Virus record (IMG/VR): IMGVR_UViG_3300012347_000364
Span: 25,019 to 89,018 of that record
Strand: one strand, 5' to 3'
From: a virus
Lineage: Duplodnaviria; Heunggongvirae; Uroviricota; Caudoviricetes
Length of the DNA: 64,000 bases
The first letter of the stretch is position 1; each line of letters starts with the position of its first letter. The position numbers were made by a program, and so were the translations under genes. The notes beneath the pieces were generated by a model. The model made no database searches, was not told where the DNA came from, and worked only from the letters and a program-made list of their open reading frames with translations. Below, piece after piece: positions 4,695 through 57,083 of the stretch.

Positions 4695-4700
4695 TAGCAT

Positions 4701-5030: not shown

Positions 5031-5031
5031 T

Positions 5032-6341: not shown

Positions 6342-6604
6342 GATTAGCGACTATATTAATTGCGGTCTTCCTTTCAGGATGTTCGACCGTAGTACCAGTA
6401 AAACAAAAATTCCCACAAGTGCCAGAGACTCTTATGAAGTCCTGCCCACCTTTGGAAAAGCTTAAAGATGAAGCACTATTGAGTGATGTCGCCAAAAGCG
6501 TCACTTTAAATTATTCGACTTATCATGGATGTGCCGTGAAAAATGATGCATGGATTGAATGGTATCAACTTCAGAAAAACATACATGAGGAAGCGAACAA
6601 ATGA
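6338..6604 (+). CDS. putative o-spanin (Rz1-like outer-membrane lipoprotein)
   Basis: Signal peptide with lipobox MRLATILIAVFLSG|C; 4-nt overlap with the i-spanin and with the endolysin. Confidence 0.55.
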   Translation: MRLATILIAVFLSGCSTVVPVKQKFPQVPETLMKSCPPLEKLKDEALLSDVAKSVTLNYSTYHGCAVKNDAWIEWYQLQKNIHEEANK

Positions 6605-7212: not shown

Positions 7213-7213
7213 C

Positions 7214-7702
7214 ATGGCTGAAGAAGTACAAGAAGTAGCAGTTAAAAAAGAAGAAGATTGGATGACGAAGAAGTGGCGTCCTATGATGGCTATCATGTAT
7301 ATGATTTGCTGTCTATGCGACTTTGCATTATTCCCAATCATGTTTACAATCGTTCAGTTCTGGGAAGTACAAGCTGCTAATGATGCATTCCGTCAGTGGG
7401 TACCGATTACATTGCAAGGCGGTGGTTTATTCCACGTAGCAATGGGTGCTGTGCTTGGTGTGTCTGCATATGGCCGTACACAAGAAAAACTTGGTGGCGC
7501 AACAACACAAACAGTTGCGACGCCAGTACTATCTACTGCAACTCCAGTAGTGCCAGCAGCCGCAATTTCTGCGCCAGTTACAGCATCTCCTGCTCCAGTT
7601 GCGCCGGTGGTTGTTGCGAATACAGCTCCACTAAATACTACACCAGAAGTAGGCTTCGGTGGGAAGAAAGCTCCTCCTGCTGCACCAGAACCTTTAATCT
7701 AA
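7214..7702 (+). CDS. putative holin / lysis membrane protein
   Basis: Two TM helices after a charged N-terminus, Pro/Ala/Thr-rich tail; follows the endolysin. Confidence 0.4.
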   Translation: MAEEVQEVAVKKEEDWMTKKWRPMMAIMYMICCLCDFALFPIMFTIVQFWEVQAANDAFRQWVPITLQGGGLFHVAMGAVLGVSAYGRTQEKLGGATTQTVATPVLSTATPVVPAAAISAPVTASPAPVAPVVVANTAPLNTTPEVGFGGKKAPPAAPEPLI

Positions 7703-7712
7703 GGAATCAAAA

Positions 7713-7889
7713 ATGAAACTATTAGCAACACTATTCGTTGCTCTAGGTTTGCTGGCTTCACAGCCAGCATTCGCTGGAGGCGAAGTAAAAGAAAAATGCA
7801 CTAAGAACGAAAAGACTGGTAAAGAAGTCTGCAAGAAAATTAAAGTGCATAAGAAGCTAGAAGGCAAAGAAATCCCTACCAAAAAGTAA
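7713..7889 (+). CDS. small secreted Lys-rich peptide (58 aa; not in the ORF track)
   Basis: AGGAATCAAAAATG RBS; signal peptide MKLLATLFVALGLLASQPAFA then a 37-aa mature peptide with two Cys and many Lys. Confidence 0.4.
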   Translation: MKLLATLFVALGLLASQPAFAGGEVKEKCTKNEKTGKEVCKKIKVHKKLEGKEIPTKK

Positions 7890-12745: not shown

Positions 12746-12749
12746 TAAA

Positions 12750-12998
12750 ATGGCAAAAGAGTTACTAAAATTCCAAGCGGAGTGGTGTGGACCATGTAAG
12801 GCTTTAACGCACATCATTGACGATGAAGATTTGGGCGTACCTGTTAGAGTCATCGACATTGACGAAGATATGGATACGCCGAAGATGTATGGCATCCGTG
12901 GGGTGCCTACGTTGGTCCTTATCGATGGTGGTAAGGAGCTGAAGAGAATAACTGGCGTGAAGACGCTTGCCGCCTTAAAAGAGTGGTTGGGAGATTAA
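12750..12998 (+). CDS. thioredoxin
   Basis: WCGPC active site; ATG at 12750 preceded by GAAGGA. The track's GTG start at 12735 overlaps the nrdA end. Confidence 0.75.
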   Translation: MAKELLKFQAEWCGPCKALTHIIDDEDLGVPVRVIDIDEDMDTPKMYGIRGVPTLVLIDGGKELKRITGVKTLAALKEWLGD

Positions 12999-13001
12999 GT
13001 T

Positions 13002-13187
13002 ATGCCAATGCGCGACTACAAATGTAGAGTATGTTCCCATACGTGGGAAGAGTTGCGTAAGGGGCAGACCGATCCTGAAAGATGCCCAATGTGCAAGACA
13101 AACGCAGTATCTCGCAAGCTGTCAGCACCGGGCGGATTTACATTTACTAATGGAAACTTTAGTGCCTCCTCGGAGAAAAGAAAATAA
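13002..13187 (+). CDS. FmdB-family zinc-ribbon protein
   Basis: YKCRVCSHTWE...CPMCKT matches the FmdB CxxC..CPxC zinc ribbon. Confidence 0.5.
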   Translation: MPMRDYKCRVCSHTWEELRKGQTDPERCPMCKTNAVSRKLSAPGGFTFTNGNFSASSEKRK

Positions 13188-13384
13188 TGGATACATATTT
13201 CCTCAATAAAGAACTCACGACTGCGTGGGAATTGCATATGGAGCGCGTGTTTGAAACAGGCAGCAAGATTGATCTACCCATCGTTGTAGAAGTTGATGGC
13301 AAGACGCATGATATCGTCTCCCTACGTCGTGAAGATAATAAACTTGTTATAGGTATTGCAAATGAACCCAATACTACAACGTGA
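13187..13384 (+). CDS. hypothetical protein (65 aa)
   Basis: ATG overlaps the upstream stop (TAATG). Confidence 0.35.
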   Translation: MDTYFLNKELTTAWELHMERVFETGSKIDLPIVVEVDGKTHDIVSLRREDNKLVIGIANEPNTTT

Positions 13385-13919
13385 CAACTACCTGGTAATT
13401 CCTAACTTTCTTTTACCGGAGAAAGCACTTCATCTAGGAGCATTATTCGATGCTTTCTGTGAAGGAGCAAACGCACACGAGGACCTCAACGTTCCAAAGT
13501 CTACGTATTTTGCTAACCATATGGATTTTGTAGATTTGTTATGCCTATCAACTGTTCGTGTATCGCGCATGGCTGGAGTTCCAGTACTACCCACATACAC
13601 ATACACCCGTGCATATACAGAGGGAGCAGATCTCAAACCACATCGCGACCGAGAGGCATGCGAAATTAGTATTACGTTATGTATTGATGAGTCTGGCCCA
13701 GTGTGGCCAATCTTTATGACAAAACCAGACGGTAGTGTTTCATCATTATCGTTATTCCCTGGCGATGCTGTCATGTACTTGGGGTGTAGATCTGCGCACT
13801 GGAGAACGCCGTGCCCTACATCCAAATACAAACAAGCATTCCTGCACTACGTTAGGGCGGATGGTCCGTTTGCGGATGAGGCGTTTGAGTATATTAGAAC
13901 CGCGCCAGCACCGCGTTGA
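13362..13919 (+). CDS. 2OG-Fe(II) oxygenase superfamily protein
   Basis: H-R-D ... SAHWR iron-binding pattern; start placed at ATG 13362 (the track start at 13356 is TTG). Confidence 0.5.
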   Translation: MNPILQRDNYLVIPNFLLPEKALHLGALFDAFCEGANAHEDLNVPKSTYFANHMDFVDLLCLSTVRVSRMAGVPVLPTYTYTRAYTEGADLKPHRDREACEISITLCIDESGPVWPIFMTKPDGSVSSLSLFPGDAVMYLGCRSAHWRTPCPTSKYKQAFLHYVRADGPFADEAFEYIRTAPAPR

Positions 13920-13944
13920 TGATATGTGTTAATTAGAATATAAT
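13916..13944 (+). promoter_or_regulatory. sigma70-type promoter TTGATG-17-TATAAT
   Basis: -35 TTGATG at 13916, 17-nt spacer, -10 TATAAT at 13939-13944, 27 nt upstream of the nrdB ATG. Confidence 0.5.
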
Positions 13945-13970
13945 ACAACAGTAACAATAATAAAGAGTTT

Positions 13971-14963
13971 ATGATCAAAAAGAAAACATCATTAATGGAC
14001 GGTCGTACATCGTTCAAACCATTTAACTACCCTTGGGCATACGATGCATGGCTTAAGCATGAGCAGTCACACTGGCTTCATACTGAAGTTCCGATGCTAG
14101 AGGACGTCAAAGACTGGAAGAATCGCCTGAGCGATGGAGAGAAGGCGTTTCTCACTAACATCTTCCGTTTCTTCACACAAGGTGATATTGATGTAGCTGG
14201 CGGATATGTAAAAAACTATCTACCACATTTTCCTCAACCAGAAGTTCGAATGATGCTGATGGGATTTGCTGCTCGCGAAGCGTTACACATCGCAGCTTAC
14301 TCTCATTTGATTGAAACTCTCGGTCTTCCGGAAACGACATATAATGAGTTTCTATCATACCAAGAGATGAAGGATAAGCATGATTATGTCCTCGACATCT
14401 CAGATACAAACGGTACGAAAGAAAACACAGCTAAGCACATCGCTGTGTTCTCAGCATTTACTGAAGGCATGCAATTATTCAGCTCATTTGTAATGTTGCT
14501 GAATTTCCCGCGCCACGGCAAAATGAAAGGCATGGGTCAAATCATCACGTGGTCTATCGTCGATGAGACGATGCATGCCGAAAACATGATGAAGTTGTTT
14601 AAGACATACATCCATGAGAATAATGAAATTTGGAATGATGAGCTTAAAGAGTCTATCTACTCCATTGCAGAGCGTATGGTAGAGCTTGAAGATCGGTTTA
14701 TTGACTTAGCATTTGGTGTGAATTCGATGGAAGACATGACGGCAGATGATTTGAAGAAGTACATCCGCTATATTGCAGACCGTCGTTTGATTGGATTGGG
14801 TATGAAAGGTATCTTCAAAGTTAAGAAGAATCCTCTTCCATGGGTTGAAGAAATGATTAATGCCCCCACACATACGAACTTCTTTGAAAATCGTGCAACA
14901 GACTATGCCAAGGGTGCGTTGTCTGGGACATGGGATGATGTTTGGACAAAACCTAAGGAATGA
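13971..14963 (+). CDS. nrdB: ribonucleotide reductase class I small subunit (R2)
   Basis: Di-iron ligand motifs FAAREALHIAAYSHLIETL and FTEGMQLFSSFVMLLNF, IVDETMHAEN; uninterrupted (no intron). Confidence 0.8.
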   Translation: MIKKKTSLMDGRTSFKPFNYPWAYDAWLKHEQSHWLHTEVPMLEDVKDWKNRLSDGEKAFLTNIFRFFTQGDIDVAGGYVKNYLPHFPQPEVRMMLMGFAAREALHIAAYSHLIETLGLPETTYNEFLSYQEMKDKHDYVLDISDTNGTKENTAKHIAVFSAFTEGMQLFSSFVMLLNFPRHGKMKGMGQIITWSIVDETMHAENMMKLFKTYIHENNEIWNDELKESIYSIAERMVELEDRFIDLAFGVNSMEDMTADDLKKYIRYIADRRLIGLGMKGIFKVKKNPLPWVEEMINAPTHTNFFENRATDYAKGALSGTWDDVWTKPKE

Positions 14964-14964
14964 T

Positions 14965-15675
14965 ATGTCTGATTATGTACAACAGTTAATTGATAATAAG
15001 AAACTTGCAATCAAACAGCTGGATCTAGACCTTCCAGAGTTGGTGTCTAGTCTAGAAGCAATCAATGCCGAACTCCATTCCAAATATGTTATGGAGGATT
15101 TCCCTGAAGGCTTCTACCACAGTTTTGGAAATCTAGCAACTGCTGCATATAGTAAGTATAATTTATTTCAATCATTCCGTCCCGGAATTCAACAGCTCAA
15201 ACACAACATCAAACAGCTATTCGAATCTTCGTTAAAAACGGAAGACAAACCGCATTTTATATGTGCATGGTTTAATGTTTATCCGCAAGGTAGAGGTGCA
15301 GGTTGGCATCTGCACGTCGATCCCGCAAAGAAGACCTACCATGGAGTGTTTTGTGTTAGATCTAACGAGCCCAGCTCAACGATATATCGTAAGCCAGTTA
15401 ATACGGAATATACATACAATTGCTTAGAACATAAACCACCCCACTGCATTATTCTAGGTGATGCTCCCTGCAATTTCGATTCATTTGATGCAGAGCATTA
15501 TCAAGAGTATGCGATAGATAGCGTAGATAATAGGTTGTTTATCGCAGAATGTGATGGGGCAGTTCATAGCTCAACACCAAATGCTGTAGAGCTTCCACGG
15601 ATCACTGTTGCGTTCGATATTGCGTACGACATAACGCAAAATGAACCTCCCGGGATGATATGGATACCACTATAA
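14965..15675 (+). CDS. hypothetical protein, possible second 2OG-Fe(II) oxygenase/cupin
   Basis: WHLHVD ... H ... RITVAFDI pattern; ATG at 14965 with AAGGAA RBS, 1 nt after the nrdB stop. Confidence 0.4.
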   Translation: MSDYVQQLIDNKKLAIKQLDLDLPELVSSLEAINAELHSKYVMEDFPEGFYHSFGNLATAAYSKYNLFQSFRPGIQQLKHNIKQLFESSLKTEDKPHFICAWFNVYPQGRGAGWHLHVDPAKKTYHGVFCVRSNEPSSTIYRKPVNTEYTYNCLEHKPPHCIILGDAPCNFDSFDAEHYQEYAIDSVDNRLFIAECDGAVHSSTPNAVELPRITVAFDIAYDITQNEPPGMIWIPL

Positions 15676-15691
15676 TAAAAAAGAGGAAATA

Positions 15692-15880
15692 ATGTTTCAA
15701 ATCGACGAACAAGAAGATGATATTATGTTGTGTGTTGAGTGCGACTCAGAATTCACAATAACAAAAATCGACGGTGATTCACAGCCTGTAGAATTCTGCC
15801 CATTTTGCGGTGCGCACATGGTTGAAGAAGACGATGAAGATTTTGACGAAGATGAGGATGAGGGTCCAACATTAAATTGA
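15692..15880 (+). CDS. acidic zinc-ribbon protein (62 aa)
   Basis: CVECDS...CPFCGAH two CxxC pairs; poly-D/E tail. Confidence 0.4.
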   Translation: MFQIDEQEDDIMLCVECDSEFTITKIDGDSQPVEFCPFCGAHMVEEDDEDFDEDEDEGPTLN

Positions 15881-15970
15881 TTTTTGTTGATCTAGATTAA
15901 CGAACTGATAAATAGCAAAGTACAATGTTGTTATGTTTCGGTGACAAAATCTTAGAAAACAAGGAAAAAT

Positions 15971-16444
15971 ATGTACAAGAAGGTCGTTTTAGCGGCGCTT
16001 TTTGTTATGGCTTCATCAACGACGGTTGCGCAAACGGATCCAATCGTCACTGACTCGACATCTAGAAGTACCACCACTTCTATTAGTGAGACTACTGTAA
16101 AGTCTCCTCCACCAACCGCAGTAGCACCAGCAATCACTGTTATTAACAGCGACGTTTGCGCAGTCGCCGCGTCTGGTGCTGTTCAAACGCAAATTCTCGG
16201 TATATCGATGGGCGGAACGATGACCGATTTTAATTGTGAGCGTATCAAGCTCGCTCGCTCCGTATATGATATGGGGATGAAAGTTGCTGCCGTTGCCATC
16301 ATGTGTCAAGATGAACGTGTGTTTACAGCAATGTCCAATGCAGGCACACCTTGCCCGGTAGATGGTAAGATTGGCGCACAAGCCAAGGAAATTTGGGACG
16401 CAAACCCAGAACGTATTCCGCAAAAAGTTAAGAGTACGAAATGA
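15971..16444 (+). CDS. secreted protein with signal peptide (157 aa)
   Basis: MYKKVVLAALFVMASSTTVAQ signal peptide, then a Ser/Thr-rich linker and a Cys-containing domain. Confidence 0.5.
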   Translation: MYKKVVLAALFVMASSTTVAQTDPIVTDSTSRSTTTSISETTVKSPPPTAVAPAITVINSDVCAVAASGAVQTQILGISMGGTMTDFNCERIKLARSVYDMGMKVAAVAIMCQDERVFTAMSNAGTPCPVDGKIGAQAKEIWDANPERIPQKVKSTK

Positions 16445-18678
16445 TCAAGAGAACCCTAGCAATTTTATTGTTAGGAGTCTCTAGCGTTTTTGCCCAAACG
16501 ATTCAGACCACCCCTAACTTAATAACATCAGGTACTTCGCACACTTGGTATGGGGTGACTACAGGCACAATTCCATCAAACTACATGCCAGGCGGCCCCC
16601 AGCCTAGGTATGATCCTAGCACAAACACGATCGCGTTCAGTTACGGTAGCGCGTCTGTAGGACAAACATACGCTGTTAATCAAGCATTGGCTGGCGTTGG
16701 TGCAGGCGTTAAGGTTAATGGTTATAACTATAGTTACGAAGTCCGTAACATGAATGGTGACGATAGACAACCAGGCATCGATACGTTCACTGTCTCTCAG
16801 CTATTGAGAGGTCCAAACAACTCAGTTCTATTAAATAGCAGCCAATTCTATAACACTAAGTTTGAATGGCAGACAGTATCTGGCACACGAACTGCAACAA
16901 CGCCATACAACATAGCTGATACAAGTTATATACAGTTTGGTGTACAGGGAGCTGATAACGGGTACTGGGGCGGATACTTTGGCCCTCAGATTCGTAACGT
17001 TAGCATGAGCTTAAAGTATAGTGTCGATCCTTGCGCTACCAACCCAGCATACTCCCCATCATGTGCGGGATATGTTAATGTGGCAACGCAAAACGTATTT
17101 AACGGGATGACTGGTCAGCAAGCATATGCACTAAACAACGCACTATCTGGTTCGGGCGTAATGGTACATGGATTTAATTACGGTTACCAGTACAGTGTTG
17201 GTGGTAGATATTGTAGTTGGATGGACTTTCTTGGTGGATGTATTGGAACGTGGATATATCCTAGTGCTTCCGTTACCACAGACGTAACGGACAATACAGG
17301 CACTTCAATATACAACGAAGTCAATACACATACTGCTGGCACATCTGGTAGCTATGATAAACAAATGAGATTTGGTGCATCACGTCCTATTTCAACAATG
17401 GGTACGTTTAATATGACGCCGTCTGGCAACATTACCAATATGTATAGCACAGTTGTGTATACACCAGACCCGTGCGTTGTCAATCCATTATCATCGACGA
17501 CTTGTTCAGGGTATCAAGCTGCATACACACAACAACAATGTACGATCACTGCATTGTATAGCACTTCATGCCCGGGATATGCACAAGCATACTTTACTCA
17601 GCAATGTACAGCGAGCGCGTTATATGATTCATTATGCCCAGGATATGCAAGTGCTTATCTAACACAACAGTGCAACATTAATCCATTATACAGCACCACT
17701 TGCTCAGGTTATGACACTGCATACCACGACCAGCAGTGTAGCATCAATCCGTTGTATGCTACAAGTTGTGTAGGGTATACGCAGGCCTACCATGACCAGC
17801 AGTGTAGTGCTAATGCTCTATATGCATCCGATTGTGTAGGATATCAGGCAGCATATAAAGCACAGCAGTGCTCCATCAATGCGCTATATGCATCCGATTG
17901 TCCTGGTCACCAAGTAGCTTATAAAGCACATCAGTGTTCGATCAGTGCTTTGTATGCTAGCGATTGTCCGGGGTATGCACAAGCATACTTCAATCAACAA
18001 TGTACAGCTGATCCATTATACAACGCACAATGTGCCGGGTATAAAGCTGCATACGCACTCAAGTATATCACACCAACTACGACCACGATCGCCACAGCAG
18101 TAACGACGCCAGTAGTCGAGACGGTTGAAGCTACTAAGGCTGTATCTGATCCTATAACGACTGCTACCGCAGCTCCGAGTACTACATCAGCTACGTCGAT
18201 ATCGCCAATTGCCGTAATATCAACAGTTAAGCCAGCTCCTGCTGCTACGGAAACGGTAGCACAAGCTGAGCCGAAGAAGGAAGAAAAGAAAGCTGAAGAT
18301 ACTCCTAAAGCTAGTGCGGACACAAAGTCAGACAGCCCTAAGCCAAAGACTGCTAGAGAAGAGATGGCAGCTAAGCGCGAAGAAGCTGCAAAGAAAGAAG
18401 CCGTTGCAAAAGCCAAAGATCTTGCTAATCAGATGGGACAAGCAGCTAGCTTAGAAGCGCAAAAGGCAGTACAGAATGTTGTTATTCAGGCGATGGGTTA
18501 CTCGCCTGGGTTTGATCAATATGGTAAGACGAGCATTCCAGATACTCAATTCTACCGCCCATTCACCATATATGGTGGGCAGAAGAATATAGACACTCGC
18601 AGTGGGGCCCGCTTGTTTGGGGGCAGCGATAGAGTACATCAAGATATGGTCGATTCACAATACCAATTAGGAAATTAA
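16441..18678 (+). CDS. secreted 745-aa protein with nine tandem 22-aa two-cysteine repeats (QQCxIxALYASxCxGYxxAYxx)
   Basis: Signal peptide MIKRTLAILLLGVSSVFAQT; beta-rich N-domain; 9 x 22-aa repeats; Thr/Ala/Pro linker; Lys/Glu-rich C-terminal region. Confidence 0.55.
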   Translation: MIKRTLAILLLGVSSVFAQTIQTTPNLITSGTSHTWYGVTTGTIPSNYMPGGPQPRYDPSTNTIAFSYGSASVGQTYAVNQALAGVGAGVKVNGYNYSYEVRNMNGDDRQPGIDTFTVSQLLRGPNNSVLLNSSQFYNTKFEWQTVSGTRTATTPYNIADTSYIQFGVQGADNGYWGGYFGPQIRNVSMSLKYSVDPCATNPAYSPSCAGYVNVATQNVFNGMTGQQAYALNNALSGSGVMVHGFNYGYQYSVGGRYCSWMDFLGGCIGTWIYPSASVTTDVTDNTGTSIYNEVNTHTAGTSGSYDKQMRFGASRPISTMGTFNMTPSGNITNMYSTVVYTPDPCVVNPLSSTTCSGYQAAYTQQQCTITALYSTSCPGYAQAYFTQQCTASALYDSLCPGYASAYLTQQCNINPLYSTTCSGYDTAYHDQQCSINPLYATSCVGYTQAYHDQQCSANALYASDCVGYQAAYKAQQCSINALYASDCPGHQVAYKAHQCSISALYASDCPGYAQAYFNQQCTADPLYNAQCAGYKAAYALKYITPTTTTIATAVTTPVVETVEATKAVSDPITTATAAPSTTSATSISPIAVISTVKPAPAATETVAQAEPKKEEKKAEDTPKASADTKSDSPKPKTAREEMAAKREEAAKKEAVAKAKDLANQMGQAASLEAQKAVQNVVIQAMGYSPGFDQYGKTSIPDTQFYRPFTIYGGQKNIDTRSGARLFGGSDRVHQDMVDSQYQLGN
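17467..18060 (+). repeat. 9 x 66-nt in-frame tandem repeat array inside CDS 16441-18678
   Basis: Codon-level repeats encoding ..C.GY..AY..QQC...LY...; a degenerate tenth copy lies near 17030. Confidence 0.6.
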
Positions 18679-40718: not shown

Positions 40719-40739
40719 AGACCAAAAGTGAAAGATGAA

Positions 40740-41300
40740 ATGAGTACACATAAAGTTTATTACACCGACGATGGCCGAGCGATGCACGTGTTTGATGGTT
40801 TGTTCGACCTGCAAACTCGTACACGATTCTTCATGTTCATTAAGAATTCGAAGTTCCTGATTACAGGCGGTGGTGGTGTTGAACCAGAAGATGTTGCAGA
40901 CCAGCAATTTCAATCAATGTACTCTTTTGAGCAGCTACTCGACTTTGGTATGATGGAGAAGCACAACTCGGACGGCTTTGCAGAGGTTATCGAAGGCTAT
41001 GCACCAATTCGTTCGTATGCTCTTGCTACTAATTACACATCTCAACCACACTTTCATCCAGACCCTCCAGGCCTGACTCTACTATACTACGCAAATATGA
41101 AGTGGGATAAAGATTGGGGTGGTGAGACGATGTTTGCTGATGATACGTTGGATGAGATCATCTACACGTCGATGTATGTTCCTGGACGTGTTGTAATCTT
41201 CGATTCCTCTATCCCTCATAAACCTTGTACGCCTACAATAAAGGCCAACCCATTTAGATTCACATACGTTATTAACTTTAAAAAGTTGGAAGCAGAATGA
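40740..41300 (+). CDS. 2OG-Fe(II) oxygenase-like protein
   Basis: HFHPD ... SIPH (HxD...H); ATG 40740 (the track's GTG at 40728 would be leaderless relative to the promoter). Confidence 0.45.
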   Translation: MSTHKVYYTDDGRAMHVFDGLFDLQTRTRFFMFIKNSKFLITGGGGVEPEDVADQQFQSMYSFEQLLDFGMMEKHNSDGFAEVIEGYAPIRSYALATNYTSQPHFHPDPPGLTLLYYANMKWDKDWGGETMFADDTLDEIIYTSMYVPGRVVIFDSSIPHKPCTPTIKANPFRFTYVINFKKLEAE

Positions 41301-42449: not shown

Positions 42450-42890
42450 ATGACAGATAAACAACACCAATATCTCACGATCCAATACGATAAAATCGTT
42501 GCTGACACTTCTATGCTAGCAGTCACACGTATGCTAGCTCTAAACGTTAGCAAGAATCCGTATATGTCAGTCAAGGACTTTTTGGAGACGTTGAGTGATG
42601 GCGATCTTGACCTTTTGCTGCTAGTTAGCGAAGAGGAAGATAATAAACACTTCGGTGAGTTGATTATCATTTCAGAAATTTTAGCTCAAACAGAGGGAAT
42701 TATTTCCGAACATAAGTCAACGGATGAAATGTTAGACCACACTATTCTGCGAGTTCAGACGCTTGCCTCTTTCTTGGCTATCGAGGGACTTGGACGAAAA
42801 GGTCTTGTTAAAGTATATCGTGAAAATATGTCGTTTGGTGAAGACCAAGGACATAAGATGATTGTTGAACGATTAGATGTTGACAAATAA
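42450..42890 (+). CDS. hypothetical protein (146 aa)
   Basis: ATG 2 nt after the upstream stop. Confidence 0.4.
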   Translation: MTDKQHQYLTIQYDKIVADTSMLAVTRMLALNVSKNPYMSVKDFLETLSDGDLDLLLLVSEEEDNKHFGELIIISEILAQTEGIISEHKSTDEMLDHTILRVQTLASFLAIEGLGRKGLVKVYRENMSFGEDQGHKMIVERLDVDK

Positions 42891-42908
42891 TTAATCACAA
42901 TGTATAAT
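42880..42908 (+). promoter_or_regulatory. perfect-consensus sigma70 promoter TTGACA-17-TATAAT
   Basis: TTGACA 42880-42885 overlaps the upstream stop; TATAAT 42903-42908; upstream of the NadM-Nudix gene. Confidence 0.6.
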
Positions 42909-42972
42909 TGAGACATATATAAGAAGGCAAGGAGATAGACTCCGAGCTTCAAACTATTGAAAGGATTTTTCA

Positions 42973-43992
42973 ATGTCAAAACCATATGGCACCCTTGTCC
43001 TCATTGGACGCTTCCAACCGTTTCACAACGCTCACCTTGAGATTATCAAGCGTGCGACTGCATTAACAGATAACCTTGTAATCATTACAGGTTCAGCAAA
43101 TCAACCACGTACATATAAGAATCCGTTCACTTCTGCTGAACGCGAACAGATGATCAAAGCCGCAACAGGCGGACTGACATTAAAGATTCACATCGAATCT
43201 AACCCCGATACAATCTACAACGACCAAGCATGGGCCGTTCGCATTCAGTCGATTGTTAGTCGCTACCGCATTCTCGGTACACGCACTGCCGTCATTGGCC
43301 ACAAGAAAGACGATAGCTCATTCTACTTGGATATGTTCCCGCAATGGGAGTATGTTGATGTGGAAGAGATCGAGCCTCTGAGTGCAGTCAACATCCGCGA
43401 CCTGTACTTCAAGCGTGACGCCAACATGAATTTCATTAAAGCAGTCGTGCCACAAACTACATTTGTGTACCTGGATGCTTTCAAAGATACGCCAGAGTAT
43501 GAGCAAATTATCAAAGAGCGCGAGTTCGTTGAGAACTACAGGAAGCAGTATGCATCTTTGCCATACCCGCCAATCTTCTCTACCGCTGATGCTGTTGTGA
43601 TTCAATCCGGTCACATCCTGCTGATCAAACGTCGCGCAGAGCCAGGTAAAGGTTTATGGGCATTGCCAGGCGGTTATGTGAACGCTAACACCGATAAGTC
43701 TGTAGAAGATGCAGCTATCCGTGAGTTGCGCGAAGAAACTATGATTAAAGTGCCAGGACCAGTATTGCGTGGGTCTATTGTTCGTAGCAAAGTATTCGAT
43801 GCAATCGATCGTAGTCCTCGTGGCCGCATCATTACACATGCATTCCACATTGTGTTGCCAGATGGTGAGTTGCCTAAAGTAAAAGGTTCCGATGATGCTG
43901 AAAAAGCACGTTGGGTGCCTATTGCAGAAGTGAAGTCGGAAGAGTGTTTCGAAGACCACTACGAAATCATCCAACACTTCTTGGGAGCTTGA
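42973..43992 (+). CDS. natV: bifunctional NMN adenylyltransferase (NadM-type) plus Nudix ADP-ribose pyrophosphatase
   Basis: Nucleotidyltransferase motif GRFQPFHNAH near the N-terminus; Nudix box GGYVNANTDKSVEDAAIRELREETMIKV; same architecture as vibriophage KVP40 NatV. Confidence 0.75.
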   Translation: MSKPYGTLVLIGRFQPFHNAHLEIIKRATALTDNLVIITGSANQPRTYKNPFTSAEREQMIKAATGGLTLKIHIESNPDTIYNDQAWAVRIQSIVSRYRILGTRTAVIGHKKDDSSFYLDMFPQWEYVDVEEIEPLSAVNIRDLYFKRDANMNFIKAVVPQTTFVYLDAFKDTPEYEQIIKEREFVENYRKQYASLPYPPIFSTADAVVIQSGHILLIKRRAEPGKGLWALPGGYVNANTDKSVEDAAIRELREETMIKVPGPVLRGSIVRSKVFDAIDRSPRGRIITHAFHIVLPDGELPKVKGSDDAEKARWVPIAEVKSEECFEDHYEIIQHFLGA

Positions 43993-43993
43993 T

Positions 43994-44203
43994 ATGCACC
44001 CAAGCAACTACCAACCTAAGCGTAGTCAACAACTCTTCCTAGCAGAACAAGTTAGGACTCAAGTTTTCAACGACTCGATGGATCAGATTATTGTACATCA
44101 TGTGTTGGAAGATACTCCAACCCGATTGTATTTACAAATTGAACGTCGTGCAACAAGTCCAATGGGCTTTGCAGATATTTACTTTGAAAGGGTGGTGCTG
44201 TAA
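43994..44203 (+). CDS. hypothetical protein (69 aa)
   Basis: ATG 2 nt after the upstream stop. Confidence 0.35.
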   Translation: MHPSNYQPKRSQQLFLAEQVRTQVFNDSMDQIIVHHVLEDTPTRLYLQIERRATSPMGFADIYFERVVL

Positions 44204-44400
44204 TGGTAACAGTAGTAAGCACTGAACCACATCCGTCCGTGGTTAAAGAAGCGATCTGCAGGAACTGTGGTGCAACATTGAACTACGTTCCCGTCGATAT
44301 TAAAGAAGAAGTACAATCGGACTACGGCGGTGGGCGTGAGACGGTACGTTTCATTAAATGCCCTCCATGCGGTCATAAAGTGATTGTGAAGGGATATTGA
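44203..44400 (+). CDS. zinc-ribbon protein (65 aa)
   Basis: CRNCGA...CPPCGH. Confidence 0.4.
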   Translation: MVTVVSTEPHPSVVKEAICRNCGATLNYVPVDIKEEVQSDYGGGRETVRFIKCPPCGHKVIVKGY

Positions 44401-44402
44401 AA

Positions 44403-44561
44403 ATGGAATGGACCCTGTTTAATTGGATCAACGTATTCTTCTTGTGTGTCAATGGATACCTCGCATGTGAATTCTTCAAAGCGGACAATCCATTTCCAGC
44501 CTACCTTAATCTGATAGCAAGTGCGACTAATGCTGCATGCATTGCTGCAATTCTAATGTAA
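44403..44561 (+). CDS. small TM peptide (52 aa; not in the ORF track)
   Basis: ATG 3 nt after the upstream stop; WINVFFLCVNGYLACEFF hydrophobic. Confidence 0.3.
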   Translation: MEWTLFNWINVFFLCVNGYLACEFFKADNPFPAYLNLIASATNAACIAAILM

Positions 44562-44570
44562 GGAATTTTT

Positions 44571-45521
44571 ATGTGGAAAAATGTTAATGTTTTCGAGGAT
44601 GAGAAAGAGCATGTCAAAAAATATGTGTTTGAAAAAGACGACATCGCAGTTGAATCTGTCCTTTATCGCTACCCTACTTACGCTGAACGTACCGTACTCT
44701 GTATTAGTACTATGTGTGGTTGCCCCATGGGCTGTCGCTTCTGTGGTACTGGTGATTACTTCGTTCGTTCCCTGACAGCAGAAGAGATTGTCGGACAAGC
44801 GGAATACATCCTAGGCACACAAATCGATGGACTAGATCCTGCTAGCATTAAGAAGCTGCAGATCATGGTAATGTCGATGGGCGAGCCTGCTCTGAATAAA
44901 GCATTGGAACAAGCATTCGAAGTGCTGTATGCAAAGTACCCTAATGCTGCATTACTGATCAGTTCGAGTGGTCCGAAGGTGGATTACACATGGATTCGCA
45001 ATATGAGTGTTCGTATCCCTACAGTCGGATTGCAGTTCAGCATTCACGAAAGCACAGATGAGGCTCGCGACAAGTTGATTCCTTTCGAGAAGAAACTCAA
45101 CTTGCAGGAAATTGCCGATCAGGGAGTTCGTTGGTATTTGGATACTGGTCGCAAACCATACTTCAACTACTGCGCTCACGAAGGTAATAATACTGACGAG
45201 GATGTTGCACGTCTTCGTGAGTTGTTCCATCCAAAGATTTGGGAAGCGACTGTTTCTGTTATTTGTGAGCGCGATGCTCACGAAGAAGCAACCAACAACA
45301 AGCAACGTGACTTGGCAATTGAATTTGGAAACAAGTTGGTTGCTGCTGACTACAACGTTCGTGTGTTTGATCCTGCTGGTCAAGATACGATCGGTGGTGG
45401 TTGCGGTCAATTGTGGTATGTGCAAGACTGGATGAAAGATCACCCAGAGCACGTTAAGCCATCGGTCGGCTGTGGCCTACAAAAAGTGCATACTCCTAAG
45501 GAGTGGAACGTTGGCAACTAA
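44571..45521 (+). CDS. radical SAM enzyme of the RlmN/Cfr family (N-terminally truncated)
   Basis: [23 protein letters not shown] vs RlmN [32 protein letters not shown] vs MGMGEPLLN; ISSSGP vs LSTSGV; C-terminal GGGCGQLW vs AACGQLAG. Lacks the ~100-aa N-terminal domain of RlmN. Confidence 0.7.
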   Translation: [316 protein letters not shown]

Positions 45522-45759
45522 AAAGAAAGCAACGGCCGTTGTTGAGGCTCCTGACATTCTGCCTGACGAACCAATCGATCGCAAAGGTTGGAAATATTAT
45601 TGCAACGACGAGTTAGTAACTGAAGAAGTTTTTAATTCGATCACTAAAGATCATCAAGCGTGGATTGATGAACAAGAGAAGATTAAAGAAGCTGCTGCAT
45701 TAGCCACACAGAAGGAAGATGCGAAGCTTGCAAAGAAGAAAGTGAAGAAGACAAAATGA
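45472..45759 (+). CDS. hypothetical Lys-rich protein (start uncertain)
   Basis: Overlaps the radical-SAM gene end by 50 nt. Confidence 0.3.
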   Translation: MAYKKCILLRSGTLATKKKATAVVEAPDILPDEPIDRKGWKYYCNDELVTEEVFNSITKDHQAWIDEQEKIKEAAALATQKEDAKLAKKKVKKTK

Positions 45760-46235
45760 TGTTGCGTACAAAAGGTAATATTATAGATCTCGCTGAAAGT
45801 GGTTCGTTTGACTTGATCATCCAAGGCTGCAATTGTTTTAATACAATGGGTAGCGGGCTTGCCAAAGAGATTCGTGCTCGCTACCCAGACGCATATGAAG
45901 CAGACCAACAAACTACTGCTGGCGATCGTACTAAGTTGGGAAACTTTTCTGCTGCTATTATCGATAAGGATGGTCATATATTTGTGATTGTTAATGCATA
46001 CACACAATACCACTACAACCTCCGTGGTGCGAAAGCGGACTTATTTGAGTATGAGGCATTAGGACGTGTTCTAGACAAGATTCGTGATTGTGCGGGACAC
46101 ACGCGAATTGGTATTCCTATGATTGGGATGGGGCTTGCTGGTGGAGACCCAGAGCGTATCATGCCAATGATTGAAAAGTTTGCACAAGACTGCACAAATC
46201 GTGGCGGTTCGGTAACATTAGTGGAGTTTGCATGA
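45756..46235 (+). CDS. macro domain protein (ADP-ribose binding/processing)
   Basis: DLIIQGCNCFNTMGSGLAKEI (cf. macro IVNAAN..LGGGGV..AI) and GIPMIGMGLAGG (cf. AFPAISTGVYG). Confidence 0.55.
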   Translation: MMLRTKGNIIDLAESGSFDLIIQGCNCFNTMGSGLAKEIRARYPDAYEADQQTTAGDRTKLGNFSAAIIDKDGHIFVIVNAYTQYHYNLRGAKADLFEYEALGRVLDKIRDCAGHTRIGIPMIGMGLAGGDPERIMPMIEKFAQDCTNRGGSVTLVEFA

Positions 46236-46741
46236 TAGTTCTCAAACCCCCAGCACCCATCGACGTAGGTAATAAATTCTCTATATTCCTTGCCGGCTCG
46301 ATTGAAATGGGTAAGGCAGAAGATTGGCAATATCGTATTTCAAAAACATTTGAAGACTATAGCGATAACTTAGTGTTACTCAACCCACGACGTGATGGTT
46401 GGGACTGGAACACGAAACAATCAATCAATAACACAACATTTAAAGGACAGGTGGATTGGGAGTTAGATGCTCTCGAAGCAGCTGACCTTATTATGTACTA
46501 CTTCGTACCTGGTACAATGAGTCCCATTTCATTACTAGAATTTGGATTATATGCCAACACAACGAAACACATCATAGTGTGCTGCCCAGAAGGATTCTGG
46601 CGCAAAGGAAACATCGACGTAGTGTGTGATAGATTCATTATCCCATTATTCGATGACTTAAACATGGTGGTAGAAGAATTGCATAATAAACTTCCACAAT
46701 GGATTCAAGCAAAACAGGTGTTGACATCGACCTCTAACTGA
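46232..46741 (+). CDS. nucleoside 2-deoxyribosyltransferase-like (NDT/SLOG Rossmann) protein
   Basis: FLAGSIEMG N-terminal Rossmann strand; SLLEFGLYANTTKHII matches the NDT-family motif (..FEIGYAxALGKPI). Confidence 0.45.
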   Translation: MIVLKPPAPIDVGNKFSIFLAGSIEMGKAEDWQYRISKTFEDYSDNLVLLNPRRDGWDWNTKQSINNTTFKGQVDWELDALEAADLIMYYFVPGTMSPISLLEFGLYANTTKHIIVCCPEGFWRKGNIDVVCDRFIIPLFDDLNMVVEELHNKLPQWIQAKQVLTSTSN

Positions 46742-46749
46742 TGTATAAT
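46721..46749 (+). promoter_or_regulatory. perfect-consensus sigma70 promoter TTGACA-17-TATAAT
   Basis: Within the 3' end of the upstream gene; TATAAT 46744-46749; 55 nt upstream of the NAMPT ATG (AAGGAG RBS). Confidence 0.6.
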
Positions 46750-46803
46750 CAAGTCAAGGCCAAAGGATAGACCGACTGGCCGATTAACGATAAGGAGCTT
46801 ATC

Positions 46804-48204
46804 ATGCGTTTAGCAAAAAACATTATCCTGAATACTGACAGCTACAAAGTGTCAATGTTCAAACAGTATCCTGCTGGTACTACTGGTGTATACAGCTACA
46901 TTGAGTCTCGTGGTGGTCGCTACGATAAGACTGTAATGTTTGGGCTGCAGGCATTCATTAAAGAATACTTGCTTACCCCAATCAACCAAATGGACATTGA
47001 GATTGCAGACGAGATTCTGACAGCTCACGGTGAACCGTTTAACCGCGAAGGTTGGCAGTATATTGTAGACAAATACAACGGCTATCTTCCTGTCGTTATC
47101 CGTGCCGTTCCTGAAGGTACTGTGGTTCCTGTTAGCAACGTACTTGCTACTATTGAAAATACTGATCCAGAATGTTTCTGGTTGACAACTTGGCTTGAGA
47201 CTGCATTGCTTCGTGCTGTATGGTATGGTACGACTGTAGCTACTCAAAGCTGGAGTATTAAGCAAGTGATTGCTGACTATTTGGAGAAAACTGGTGATCC
47301 CACTTCTATTGATTTTAAGTTGCACGATTTCGGTGCTCGAGGCGTATCTTCTATGGAGAGTGCTGGCATTGGCGGGGCAGCTCACCTTGTCAACTTTATG
47401 GGATCGGATACTATTAGCGGTGTATTGTTTGCTCGTGAGTACTATAACGCTGGGATCGCTGGCTTTAGCATTCCTGCCGCAGAGCACAGCACTATCACTT
47501 CTTGGGGTCGTGACAACGAAGTAAAAGCATATGAAAACATGCTCACTCAGTTCGCGAAGCCTGGTGCTATTCTCGCTGTCGTTTCTGATTCTTATGATAT
47601 CTACAATGCTGTCCGTAACTTGTGGGGCACCGAGCTCCGTGATCGAGTTATTGCAAGTGGCGCAACTGTGGTTATTCGTCCTGATAGCGGGGATCCAGTC
47701 AGCGTTAATAAACAGCTGATTGAAATCTTAGGAGAGAAATTTGGTTACACAACAAACGCCAAAGGATTCAAAGTCCTCAACAACGTTCGCCTCATCCAGG
47801 GCGACGGAGTTAATGAGCTTAGCATTCGTAGTATTCTTGGGGCTTTTATGGCCATGGGTTGGTCTGCTGATAATATTGCGTTTGGTATGGGTGGCGCATT
47901 GTTACAACAGATTGATCGTGACACCCAACGATTCGCAATGAAGTGTTCTGCTGCTCTTATCAATGGAGATTGGGTCGATGTTCAAAAAGATCCGGTCACT
48001 GATAGTGGCAAGCGCTCGAAAGCAGGTCGTGTCTCTCTGTGGACTAATAGTGGTGGTGAATTCGCTTCTAGCGTATCTGCTCCTACTGGCTGGTCTGACA
48101 AAGGGATTGGTGGTTGGACTAACGCGCTGGACGAAGTCTACCGCGATGGTAAACTGGTCAAAGAATATACCTTCGATGAAGTACGAGCCAATACTCGCAA
48201 GTAA
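46804..48204 (+). CDS. nadV: nicotinamide phosphoribosyltransferase (NAMPT)
   Basis: NTDSYKVSMFKQYP; GWQYIVDKYNGYLPVVIRAVPEGTVVP; TIENTDPECFWLTTWLETAL; KLHDFGARGVSSMESAGIGGAAHLVNFMGSDT. Near-collinear with human/KVP40 NAMPT. Confidence 0.85.
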   Translation: MRLAKNIILNTDSYKVSMFKQYPAGTTGVYSYIESRGGRYDKTVMFGLQAFIKEYLLTPINQMDIEIADEILTAHGEPFNREGWQYIVDKYNGYLPVVIRAVPEGTVVPVSNVLATIENTDPECFWLTTWLETALLRAVWYGTTVATQSWSIKQVIADYLEKTGDPTSIDFKLHDFGARGVSSMESAGIGGAAHLVNFMGSDTISGVLFAREYYNAGIAGFSIPAAEHSTITSWGRDNEVKAYENMLTQFAKPGAILAVVSDSYDIYNAVRNLWGTELRDRVIASGATVVIRPDSGDPVSVNKQLIEILGEKFGYTTNAKGFKVLNNVRLIQGDGVNELSIRSILGAFMAMGWSADNIAFGMGGALLQQIDRDTQRFAMKCSAALINGDWVDVQKDPVTDSGKRSKAGRVSLWTNSGGEFASSVSAPTGWSDKGIGGWTNALDEVYRDGKLVKEYTFDEVRANTRK

Positions 48205-48222
48205 TAGCTACTAGCTAGCACG

Positions 48223-48253
48223 AAAGGCCACCGTTGTGTGGCCTTTCCTTTTT
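48223..48253 (+). terminator. rho-independent terminator AAAGGCCAC-cgttgt-GTGGCCTTT plus TCCTTTTT
   Basis: 9-bp stem, 6-nt loop, T-run; 19 nt after the NAMPT stop. Confidence 0.6.
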
Positions 48254-48262
48254 GTGTATAAT
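48234..48262 (+). promoter_or_regulatory. sigma70-type promoter TTGTGT-17-TATAAT overlapping the terminator
   Basis: -10 TATAAT 48257-48262; AAAAGGAA RBS; ATG 48286. Confidence 0.4.
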
Positions 48263-51800: not shown

Positions 51801-52820
51801 TTGAAAATGCGTAAACTCGCTACTATCCGTAAGATTGATCAACTGCTTCCTATTGAAGGTGCAGATGCGATCGAATGTGCTATTGTTGGTGGTTGGAAAG
51901 TTGTTGCACAAAAAGGTCTATACAAAGAAGGTGATCTTGCTGTGTATTTTGAGATTGACTCGTGGATTCCTACTGAGCTGGCTCCATTCCTGTCTAAAGG
52001 CAAAGAGCCTCGTGAGTTTGAAGGTGTTAAGGGTGAACGTCTGAAGACTATCAAGCTACGTGGTCAGTTGTCTCAAGGTTTGCTAATGCCTCTGGCTGAG
52101 ATCGATAAATTCTTCACCACAAAACCACATTGGTCTGAAGATGAAGATTTGACTGAAATCTTGAACATCAAGAAGTGGGAAAAGCCAATCAATGCGCAGC
52201 TGGCTGGCGTATGTCGTGGTAACTTCCCGTCTCTGATTCCGAAGACTGATCAAGAACGTGCTCAAAACCTGAAGAAGGAAATTGCTGCAGCTCGAGGTCT
52301 TGAATTCGAAGTGACGGAAAAGCTAGAAGGTTCTTCTATGACCTGCTACTTGATCAACGATGAGTTTGGTGTTTGCTCTCGTAACCTGGATTTGAAGGAG
52401 ACAGAAGGCAACGCATTCTGGACAATTGCTCGTCGTCTGGGTATTGAAGAAAAGATGCGTGCACTTGGTGCAATGGGTGGCCTGGCTATCCAAGGTGAGT
52501 TGATCGGTCCTGGCATCCAAGGTAACATCTACAAGTTGAATGATACACAGTTCCGTGTGTTTGATGTATATGCCGTCCAGGGTGGCGAATACCTCACTCC
52601 CGATGCCCGCCGCGTATTGATTGATGGTATGGGTCTCGACCATGTGCCTGTTATCGCTACGCGATTTGTGTTGGAGCATGGTGTCGAACAATTGTTGGCA
52701 ATGGCTGAATATAAGTCTGAGCTTGCTAATGTCGAACGCGAAGGCATTGTGTTTAAACAAGTCGATGGCGGCATGACGTTCAAGGCTATTTCTAACAAAT
52801 ATTTGCTAGGTGAAAAGTAA
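51801..52820 (+). CDS. ATP-dependent RNA ligase (Rnl2/DRB0094-like nucleotidyltransferase) with N-terminal tRNA-binding OB (Myf/Trbp111-like) domain
   Basis: N-terminal LPIEGADAIECAIVGGWKVV (cf. hP.AD.L.V..VDVG); motif I EKLEGSS, III FRVFDVY, IV EREGIVFK (cf. T4 Rnl2 EGYVLK), V KAISNKY. Confidence 0.55.
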   Translation: MKMRKLATIRKIDQLLPIEGADAIECAIVGGWKVVAQKGLYKEGDLAVYFEIDSWIPTELAPFLSKGKEPREFEGVKGERLKTIKLRGQLSQGLLMPLAEIDKFFTTKPHWSEDEDLTEILNIKKWEKPINAQLAGVCRGNFPSLIPKTDQERAQNLKKEIAAARGLEFEVTEKLEGSSMTCYLINDEFGVCSRNLDLKETEGNAFWTIARRLGIEEKMRALGAMGGLAIQGELIGPGIQGNIYKLNDTQFRVFDVYAVQGGEYLTPDARRVLIDGMGLDHVPVIATRFVLEHGVEQLLAMAEYKSELANVEREGIVFKQVDGGMTFKAISNKYLLGEK

Positions 52821-56690: not shown

Positions 56691-57083
56691 ATGGGAATGA
56701 TTTTAGTGAGAGGTTTACCGGGATCTGGTAAGTCGACTTTGGCAAAGACGTTGATTGGTTTCTACATGCACGTAGAGACTGATAAGTTTTGGGGTCCAGA
56801 ATACAATTTCGATATGAGCCGCCTCGGCGAAGCACATGCGTGGTGCTTGTCCGAAACTCGTCGTCTATTAGCTGCTGGCTTCAGTCCAGTAGTATCCAAC
56901 ACTTTCACTACAAAGAAAGAGCTCGCGCCATACTTTGCATTGGCCAAAGAGTTTGATGTTGTTCCACAAGTCGTGTTGTGTCAGGGCAACTTCAAGAACG
57001 TCCACAACGTTCCTGAAGAAGTCTTATTCAAGATGAACGCACGTTTTGAATACAACATCGATGAATTGTGGGCCACGCTTTGA
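56691..57083 (+). CDS. P-loop kinase, polynucleotide-kinase-like (kinase domain only)
   Basis: MGMILVRGLPGSGKSTLAKTL parallels the T4 Pnk N-terminus [22 protein letters not shown]; 130 aa, no phosphatase domain. Confidence 0.5.
   Translation: MGMILVRGLPGSGKSTLAKTLIGFYMHVETDKFWGPEYNFDMSRLGEAHAWCLSETRRLLAAGFSPVVSNTFTTKKELAPYFALAKEFDVVPQVVLCQGNFKNVHNVPEEVLFKMNARFEYNIDELWATL

Follow-up and report, generated by a model that had tools for sequence, protein, structure and literature searches.

An extended NAD+ reconstitution island of a large uncultured phage and a probable NDT-like helper of NAD+ rebuilding

A stretch of 64,000 nucleotides from the caudoviricete record IMGVR_UViG_3300012347_000364 (positions 25,019 to 89,018 of that record; hereafter the window) carries, at positions 42,880 to 48,262, an island in which the two genes of NAD+ reconstitution pathway 2 (NARP2), NatV and NadV, enclose a radical S-adenosylmethionine (radical-SAM) gene, a Macro-domain gene and a gene for a nucleoside deoxyribosyltransferase-like (NDT-like) protein of family PF15891. 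The NDT-like gene shows a strong linkage to genes of NAD+ reconstitution, one that recurs in independent contexts, and its product is probably an undescribed helper of the pathway that rebuilds NAD+. We consider it likely that the island is one early unit of a large phage, combining NARP2 with optional accessories, namely an Adpp-type Macro protein, an NDT-like N-glycosidase or transglycosylase and a radical-SAM enzyme that acts on RNA. The NARP2 core is already known, and so is the Macro accessory in the sister pathway NARP1; the NDT-like accessory and its breadth appear to be undescribed. The five genes and their coordinates, as listed in a preliminary description of this DNA, are borne out by the list of open reading frames (ORFs) and by profile matches, and the island contains four further small ORFs that the description did not mention. 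Its statement that the arrangement is not a described one agrees with a literature search, which found no paper describing it.

In salvage from nicotinamide, NadV joins nicotinamide and phosphoribosyl pyrophosphate (PRPP) into nicotinamide mononucleotide (NMN), the NMN adenylyltransferase domain of NatV converts NMN and ATP into NAD+, and the Nudix domain of NatV cleaves ADP-ribose (ADPR) into AMP and ribose 5-phosphate. NatV of the window (42973-43992, + strand, 339 aa) matches NUDIX (2.8e-21) and CTP_transf_like (1.4e-15) in Pfam as well as phrog_395 (3.7e-79), scores 399.5 bits against the NCBIfam model NF003786 for bifunctional NMNAT/Nudix enzymes (cut-off 397) and shows the motif GRFQPFHNAH; by these matches, it is a bifunctional NMN adenylyltransferase of the NadM type with a Nudix ADPR pyrophosphatase domain. 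NadV (46804-48204, + strand, 466 aa) matches NAPRTase (6e-63) and NAMPT_N (6e-28) in Pfam and, with 658 bits against NF006629, lies about 250 bits above the cut-off of 405. A 2026 structural paper (PMC12774641) showed that the signature GSxΦxΦxΦTRD, with aromatic residues at x, tells Namat, the transferase of NARP1 that uses ADPR pyrophosphate (ADPR-PP), from the PRPP-using Nampt. In our alignment, the corresponding helix reads GMGGALLQQIDRD in the window protein and its relatives, which is the Nampt form and not the Namat signature GSxTxQxNTRD, and all transferases paired with an Adps-like gene carry GS[FY]TY[QE]Y[NV]TRD. No Adps homologue was found in the 64-kb window by tblastn with an Adps-like query. 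Because the family scores exceed curated cut-offs, the helix is of the Nampt type and Adps is absent from the window, the sequences assign the core of the island to NARP2, the combination of Nampt and Nmnat in one phage that overcomes NAD+-depleting defences (Osterman et al. 2024). The flanking genes are thus the KVP40-type NadV/NatV salvage pair that the preliminary description took them to be, now named NARP2. The NARP2 of Vibrio phage KVP40 (Lee et al. 2017; Osterman et al. 2024) shares with the island the two enzymes, their domain architecture, the Nampt-type helix and a single locus without Adps, whereas in the window 2.8 kb with seven ORFs separate NatV from NadV, and NadV has its own promoter. 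In most cultured phages, unlike in the window, the two genes are directly adjacent.

The NDT-like protein (46232-46741, + strand, 169 aa) matches PF15891 with 6.5e-30 and 104 bits (cut-off 30), and two close homologues also match PF05014; these matches are what it shares with the NDT/DNPH1 (Rcl)/MilB superfamily. In the PDB, searches by sequence and by profile with the family reached a sole structure, 4MCJ (BDI_0649), an uncharacterised structural-genomics protein, so that a fold search was needed; together with the profile match above gathering, it places the protein in the NDT/DNPH1/TIR-type Rossmannoid fold. Proteins with the NDT-type fold are N-glycosidases and transglycosylases, and they are related to TIR domains. 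Among 30 homologues 42 columns are invariant, including E25, R53, R54, D58, E77, S97, E103 and R124, and this number of fixed positions, acidic and basic residues among them, argues for an enzyme rather than a binding module. E103, in the invariant SP.S.LE.G, agrees by eye with the position of the NDT/DNPH1 glutamate, and the N-terminal FLAGSIE.G resembles what we take to be the phosphate-binding GS motif of DNPH1, a likeness that serves as a lead only. Unlike the NDT/DNPH1/MilB proteins, the family has the invariant motifs NPRR..WD and CCP.GFWRKGN of its own, has no characterised member within sequence reach of the window protein, and stands in an NAD-centred gene context that is not known for NDTs. 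The family is widespread: a search for it gave 6,733 homologues, bacterial species genomes contain at least 557 stretches that match it, and its one solved structure has no assigned function. We found no PF15891 member with a known activity.

The gene context of the NDT-like family was followed in 70 viral loci fetched with the window protein, and the island proteins together with Adps-like and Namat-like queries were mapped on all loci. A gene of the Nampt or Namat family lies within 1.5 kb of the NDT-like gene in 32 of the 83 non-duplicate loci and within 8 kb in 39 of them, counts that come from similarity-ranked samples of related contigs and are uncorrected for kinship. Such genes were found in none of the 80 control loci (0.92 Mb, anchored on the ribonucleotide reductase of the window and drawn from a single narrow clade). 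The 39 NAD-linked loci comprise 22 of the NARP1 type, 13 of the NARP2 type and 4 that are truncated, and some of the IMG/VR contigs may hold misassigned bacterial DNA. Typical gene orders are Adps-x-NDT-Namat, Adps-NDT-Macro-Namat, Adps-Namat-NADAR-NDT-Macro and NatV-...-NDT-NadV. The NDT-like gene is thus also found inside Adps-Namat operons, that is, NARP1, whose transferases carry the published Namat signature and whose Prs-like partners, at 273-294 aa, have the short length described for Adps. A further connection is a domain fusion in Tunturiibacter phage Tunturi_5, in which gp225 (1262 aa; locus L007 of our numbering, 3983-7771), adjoining the portal gene, joins an N-terminal PF15891 domain to an ART-PolyVal ADP-ribosyltransferase. 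In its record, gp225 is annotated as a MutT/NUDIX hydrolase only.

In chromosomes of Bacteroidota, the NDT-like gene lies in operons headed by NrtR, the ADPR-responsive repressor of NAD metabolism. NrtR is followed by a short Prs-like gene, then by a gene for a HAD-like protein of 140 aa, NADAR or KptA, then by the NDT-like gene, and this by a transferase gene with the Namat signature (L100, L103-L105, L275-L350); some operons add an ADP-ribosylglycohydrolase, a TonB receptor, PnuC and NadR, and in Chitinophaga rupis a KptA/Tpt1 gene adjoins the NDT-like gene. This arrangement looks like a bacterial, ADPR-regulated, extended NARP1. The NrtR head, the Prs-like gene and the Namat-signature transferase around the NDT-like homologues are the same as in the bacterial nrtR-prs-nadV operons (Rodionov et al. 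2008) and in bacterial NARP1 (NAR 2026, gkaf1492), whereas the NDT-like, HAD-like, NADAR and KptA genes are mentioned in neither paper. The HAD-like protein is an unannotated product of 140-146 aa whose gene separates Adps from the NDT-like gene, both in viral contigs and in Bacteroidota (L089:469-909; L100:5582-6004 and homologues); it has no Pfam hit and shows by eye the DxDxT and DD motifs typical of HAD phosphatases, and by analogy with Adpp it may be another accessory phosphatase. A survey of viral NAD-ADPR systems from the Aravind group reported SLOG, Macro, NADAR and Nudix genes near NadV and NadM and found the deoxyribohydrolase superfamily under-represented in viruses. Our literature search found no paper that mentions the NDT-like family together with NARP, NadV or NrtR.

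The Macro protein (45756-46235, + strand, 159 aa) stays below gathering against both Pfam Macro (E 0.038) and ThsA_Macro (E 0.0063). The Macro assignment is based instead on phrog_335 ('phosphatase', 1e-47), on PDB matches to the macrodomain proteins SCO6735, the DarG macrodomain and yeast Poa1p (5E3B, 5M3I, 6LFU; Poa1p 6LFU E 3.6e-4) and on 33% identity to Adpp. A preprint of January 2026 described a Poa1p-like Macro gene, named Adpp, in 15% of NARP1 operons, and reported that Adpp makes ADPR out of ADPR-1''-phosphate, which the aRES defence produces; the association was described for NARP1 only (Osterman et al. 2026 preprint). With the Adpp of Vibrio phage Gary (reference sequence from Table S1 of that preprint), the window protein aligns collinearly over 136 of its 159 residues (E 1e-19) and has in common the motifs CNCF..MG.G, QYH and GLAGGD, and it is 40% identical to the Macro protein of an Adps-NDT-Macro-Namat operon. 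Its likeness to Adpp suggests an Adpp-type phosphatase that would turn ADPR-1''-phosphate into ADPR. The preprint counts Macro genes within two genes of a NARP1 core; the Macro gene of the window falls outside this definition, since its pathway is NARP2 and Adps and Namat are absent, and lies one gene from NadV, within the equivalent distance for NARP2. Compared with the Adps-Adpp-Namat operon of phage Gary (NARP1-AP), a homologous Macro gene is inserted in an NAD+ reconstitution operon in both cases, whereas in the NARP2 of the window ADPR is no building block and would reach the Nudix domain of NatV or simply be detoxified. Of 58 related islands (a NadV-anchored sample), 30 carry the Macro gene in the interval from NatV to NadV, which makes the Adpp-type Macro a common NARP2 accessory in this clade. 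A DarG-type DNA ADP-ribosyl glycohydrolase was considered and rejected: NF048014 gives 31.5 bits against a cut-off of 250, and the DarG stretch 'PTKKHW', which presumably holds the catalytic lysine, aligns with 'YTQYHY' of the Macro protein, which resembles 'YGQYHW' of Adpp. PADLOC likewise reported a weak DarG/ThsA Macro resemblance only, and it reported nothing for the NDT-like or radical-SAM protein.

The radical-SAM protein (44571-45521, + strand, 316 aa) is RlmN/Cfr-like. It matches Pfam Radical_SAM above gathering (2e-07), reaches 101.6 bits (4e-29) against RlmN TIGR00048, far below the cut-off of 290, and 85.4 bits against Cfr NF000424 (cut-off 530). Against Cfr (9e-32) and RlmN (3e-31, 1e-26), a profile built from 17 homologues aligns collinearly over about 270 residues; these alignments begin at residue 71 of Cfr and position 71 of the RlmN model, so that the protein lacks the N-terminal accessory, RNA-binding domain of about 70 residues. 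The CX3CX2C cluster motif is formed by C51, C55 and C58, and C44 and C278 align with the mechanistic cysteines C118 and C355 of RlmN (Cfr 9P0P; RlmN 3RF9, 6FZ6); all five are invariant or nearly so in the 17 homologues. The cluster motif and both mechanistic cysteines are thus kept as in RlmN and Cfr, whereas the missing domain, the scores below curated cut-offs and two further cysteines, C201 and C232, which are invariant in the phage family and absent from RlmN and Cfr, set the protein apart, as does the phage-borne distribution of a family often found beside NAD+ genes. With C44 and C278, these two make four cysteines outside the cluster. A small zinc-ribbon protein (44203-44400, + strand, 65 aa) with two CxxC pairs (phrog_2834, 6.7e-14; DUF7479, 3e-05, below cut-off) is a repeated neighbour of the radical-SAM gene in relatives, even in distant ones like L138, and we speculate that it might substitute for the missing N-terminal domain.

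The link of the radical-SAM gene to NAD+ genes is partial. A Nampt- or Namat-family gene lies within 8 kb in 26 of 94 non-duplicate loci, 22 of them NARP2-type and 2 NARP1-type; the other 68 loci (72%) are not near NAD genes, and the linked fraction is still above the control. The commonest conserved neighbours are NatV (28/85 loci) and NadV (26/85), no other real family exceeding 15, and only 7 of 60 loci are NAD-linked in the 56-62% identity band. In Vibrio phage 496E54-1 (L002), the order is Adps, small ORF, Namat and then the radical-SAM gene (annotated 'partial'); Table S1 of the aRES preprint associates a different Macro type with this NARP1 locus. No NAD genes were found near the radical-SAM gene in cultured phages such as ANB28, Arash and Ahp1, and in ANB28 the gene lies among tRNAs. 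The idea that it tracks tRNA genes was dropped, with tRNAs in 8 of 60 NAD-free radical-SAM loci compared with 13 of 33 NAD-free NDT-like loci and 2 of 27 ribonucleotide reductase controls. A tmRNA-like gene and an array of 12 tRNAs were seen beside one homologue on an IMG/VR contig (L185:10483-10858). We know of no chemistry that links adenine C-methylation, the reaction of a Class A RNA methylase, to NAD+ rebuilding. We think that the radical-SAM gene is a separately acting, co-travelling accessory with RNA as its probable target, and not a step of NAD+ synthesis. The preliminary proposal that the middle genes extend the pathway is therefore well supported for the Macro gene, as an Adpp homologue, and for the NDT-like gene, with its repeated NAD linkage, and weakly for the radical-SAM gene.

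In the reading that we favour, NadV and NatV would rebuild NAD+ from nicotinamide via NMN, the Macro protein would return ADPR-1''-phosphate from RES-type NAD+ cleavage to ADPR, and the truncated RlmN/Cfr-like enzyme would most likely methylate C2 or C8 of adenine in RNA of the translation apparatus. Context, fold and conservation suggest that the NDT-like protein would be an enzyme, working as an N-glycosidase or transglycosylase on an adenine nucleotide or on one derived from NAD. Since it accompanies both PRPP-using and ADPR-PP-using pathways, its role should concern what these share, namely nicotinamide, NAD+, AMP or the products of NAD+ cleavage. Hydrolysis of cyclic ADPR is a known activity of ADP-ribosyl cyclases, CD38 among them. 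Both characterised accessories of NARP1 turn products of non-canonical cleavage into ADPR: Adpp, and RyDEP, a RyR-domain glycosidase on 2'cADPR and 3'cADPR in the NARP1 operon of mycobacteriophage DyoEdafos (Lopez Rivera et al. 2026 preprint). By analogy, the NDT-like protein could resemble RyDEP as a glycosidase that sits inside an NAD+ reconstitution operon and feeds it, whereas the RyR Repeat12 fold is unrelated to the NDT/TIR-type Rossmannoid, and cleavage of 2'cADPR or 3'cADPR is without support for PF15891. On the precedent of Adpp and RyDEP, the N-glycosidase fold, the TIR kinship and CD38-type chemistry, our best guess is an N-glycosidase on an NAD-derived nucleotide, which would form a third kind of 'feeder or clean-up' enzyme beside Adpp and RyDEP and recover ADPR, ribose phosphate or nicotinamide from a product of non-canonical cleavage. 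A role as NMN nucleosidase is ruled out in the window, since NatV uses NMN directly. More tentatively, PF15891 may constitute a third class of NARP accessory throughout phage NARP1, NARP2 and the NrtR operons of Bacteroidota, with N-glycosidase or base-exchange activity that would convert an NAD product not yet addressed into ADPR or, with nicotinamide, into NAD+; N1- or N7-cyclic ADPR, His-ADPR or another base-ADPR conjugate could serve as its substrate. More boldly still, the truncated RlmN-like enzyme might act on an adenine nucleotide instead of rRNA or tRNA.

Several observations weigh against a dedicated NAD+ role of the accessories. Only 6 of the 58 related NARP2 islands have the NDT-like gene and only 4 the radical-SAM gene, and 4 hold a full set like that of the window; 28 consist of NatV-NadV alone and 24 of NatV-Macro-NadV (once with a zinc-ribbon ORF), and gene order is shuffled among them. 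All accessories of the island are dispensable, and the radical-SAM/Macro/NDT-like trio, which the preliminary description had put forward as a unit, is not conserved as one. No NAD gene is near the NDT-like gene in roughly half of the viral loci or in 64 of the 80 bacterial ones, so that the family is not exclusively NAD-linked, and in several cultured phages that have both, the NDT-like and NARP2 genes are 18-100 kb apart. The kinship in the linkage counts also counts against us, as do the assignment of the catalytic glutamate by eye only and the fact that NARP2 needs neither ADPR nor ADPR-1''-phosphate as input, so that a feeder role is less obvious than in NARP1. Other phages fill the same interval differently: Ralstonia phage RsoM2USA (L189, record positions 12298-16699) has TelA, vWA-TerF, TerC/DUF475, TerD and Nudix genes between NatV and NadV, and XacN1 has an acetyltransferase and NADAR there. 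The RsoM2USA genes of the interval are all annotated as hypothetical in the record. The variable content, the shuffled order and the cargo of RsoM2USA and XacN1 mark the interval as a cargo slot enriched for ADPR-handling functions. The KVP40 and T4-like synteny proposed earlier is not a suitable frame: a near-identity DNA search against 50,697 phage records gave no match, so that no cultured relative is usable for synteny. It could then be argued that the interval is a permissive insertion site or anti-defence islet and that the radical-SAM, Macro and NDT-like genes are passengers without an NAD+ role, the more so as NatV and NadV adjoin in most cultured phages, 68 of 94 radical-SAM homologues and about half of the NDT-like ones lie away from NAD genes, and NAD-free NDT-like loci are often beside tRNA arrays, which are typical accessory regions. 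We regard this as unlikely, because it leaves unexplained why the NDT-like gene recurs inside NARP1 operons of different chemistry and in Bacteroidota NrtR operons, why it is fused to an ADP-ribosyltransferase and why the Macro protein is homologous to a proven NARP1 accessory enzyme, and the control loci show none of these genes.

Two further explanations were weighed. The NDT-like protein could be a nucleoside 5'-monophosphate N-glycosidase of the DNPH1, LOG or AMP-nucleosidase type, freeing ribose 5-phosphate from AMP (supplied by the NatV Nudix domain or by Prs), from which the host Prs would make PRPP for NadV. The likeness of FLAGSIE.G to the presumed DNPH1 motif points this way, and NARP2 is costly and drains PRPP (Osterman et al.). 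Such a role in ribose-5-phosphate or PRPP supply is possible for NARP2 and fits the NARP1 contexts poorly; most linked loci are of the NARP1 type, whose Namat-signature transferase uses ADPR-PP and not PRPP, and their short Prs-like partners, 273-294 aa like Adps, need no ribose 5-phosphate. This explanation was the one first favoured and was downgraded once most linked operons proved, by their Namat signature, to be users of ADPR-PP, and we now hold it to be distinctly unlikely. Alternatively, the Poa1p-like Macro protein, the RlmN-like methylase, an RNA ligase and a P-loop kinase could act as a module on damaged tRNA or rRNA, with NAD+ salvage merely supplying it and ADPR-1''-phosphate arising from the NAD+-dependent removal of RNA 2'-phosphates. 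The native role of Poa1p is in tRNA splicing, the DNA downstream of the island encodes an RNA ligase (51801-52820, phrog_968 9.5e-93) and, at about 56697-57050, a P-loop kinase-like protein, ligase homologues are repeated neighbours of NARP1-type and NARP2-type loci, KptA/Tpt1 adjoins the NDT-like gene in C. rupis, and NAD-linked RNA repair neighbourhoods are known from phages (Iyer et al. 2022). A homologue search of the window found none of KptA/Tpt1, Adps, NADAR or the HAD-like protein. The absence of KptA/Tpt1 from the window counts against the module, as do the position of the ligase gene, which belongs to another transcription unit 3.6 kb past the terminator, and the lack of any specific enrichment of tRNA genes near radical-SAM homologues; such a module also has no role for the NDT-like protein, and we hold it to be quite improbable.

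The transcription signals are consistent with the extended NARP2 unit. In the ORF list, neighbouring genes from NatV through to the NDT-like gene either abut or share 1-4 bases, the start of the NDT-like gene overlapping the stop of the Macro gene (ATGA), and a scan found no terminator-like site on the + strand between NatV and NadV. A perfect sigma-70 promoter, TTGACA-N17-TATAAT (42880..42908, +, 12/12 match), precedes NatV, and a second perfect one (46721..46749, +) lies upstream of NadV and within the NDT-like gene, at its 3' end. An intrinsic terminator (48222..48257, +; hairpin 48222-48247) with a 10-bp stem, 6 G-C pairs, a 6-nt loop and a T-run stands 3' of NadV. The preliminary description had counted three promoters and a strong terminator; the first two promoters are perfect and the terminator is real, whereas the third (48234..48262, +) has a perfect TATAAT but a -35 of TTGTGT (3/6), was not called by the scan and is at best a possible weak promoter of the next gene. 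From these features we infer that the genes form one early unit in which an internal promoter boosts NadV. In the whole window there are five perfect TTGACA-N17-TATAAT sites, all on the + strand (10027, 29197, 42880, 46721 and 56630), compared with 0.05 expected by chance, and they probably mark early phage units that depend on the host RNA polymerase.

The island holds three small ORFs besides the zinc-ribbon gene. The first (43994-44203, +, 69 aa) is without a family match and is 84% kept in one relative (L013), a hydrophobic ORF (44397-44561, +, 54 aa) is weakly conserved (43-45% in L011, L012 and L014), and a lysine-rich ORF (45472-45759, +; 95 aa in the ORF list, with an uncertain true start) overlaps both the radical-SAM gene at its 3' end and the start of the Macro gene and has a 59% match in L010 only. 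Just upstream of the island, a 190-aa protein (40728-41300) gives disagreeing labels, 2OG-Fe(II) oxygenase (2e-05, below cut-off) and phrog_274 'DNA endonuclease V'. The surrounding window encodes a ribonucleotide reductase, a DNA ligase, the RNA ligase, a long tail-fibre-like protein and two tRNAs. The related sequences are IMG/VR contigs of up to 364 kb, and the source of the window is a large uncultured phage.

Depletion of NAD+ is one of the commonest anti-phage strategies of bacteria, and the phage answers to it (NARP1, NARP2, NARP3, Adpp and RyDEP) were worked out gene by gene in 2024-2026. The island indicates that NARP2, like NARP1, exists in extended forms. Every tested gene inserted in NARP operons has so far exposed a new non-canonical way in which defences break NAD+, and the NDT-like gene bears the same genomic signature in three independent settings, with a fold that includes TIR NADases and ADP-ribosyl cyclases. 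Its study could therefore expose a new step of NAD+ recycling, an unknown product of a defence system and a function for a widespread protein family.

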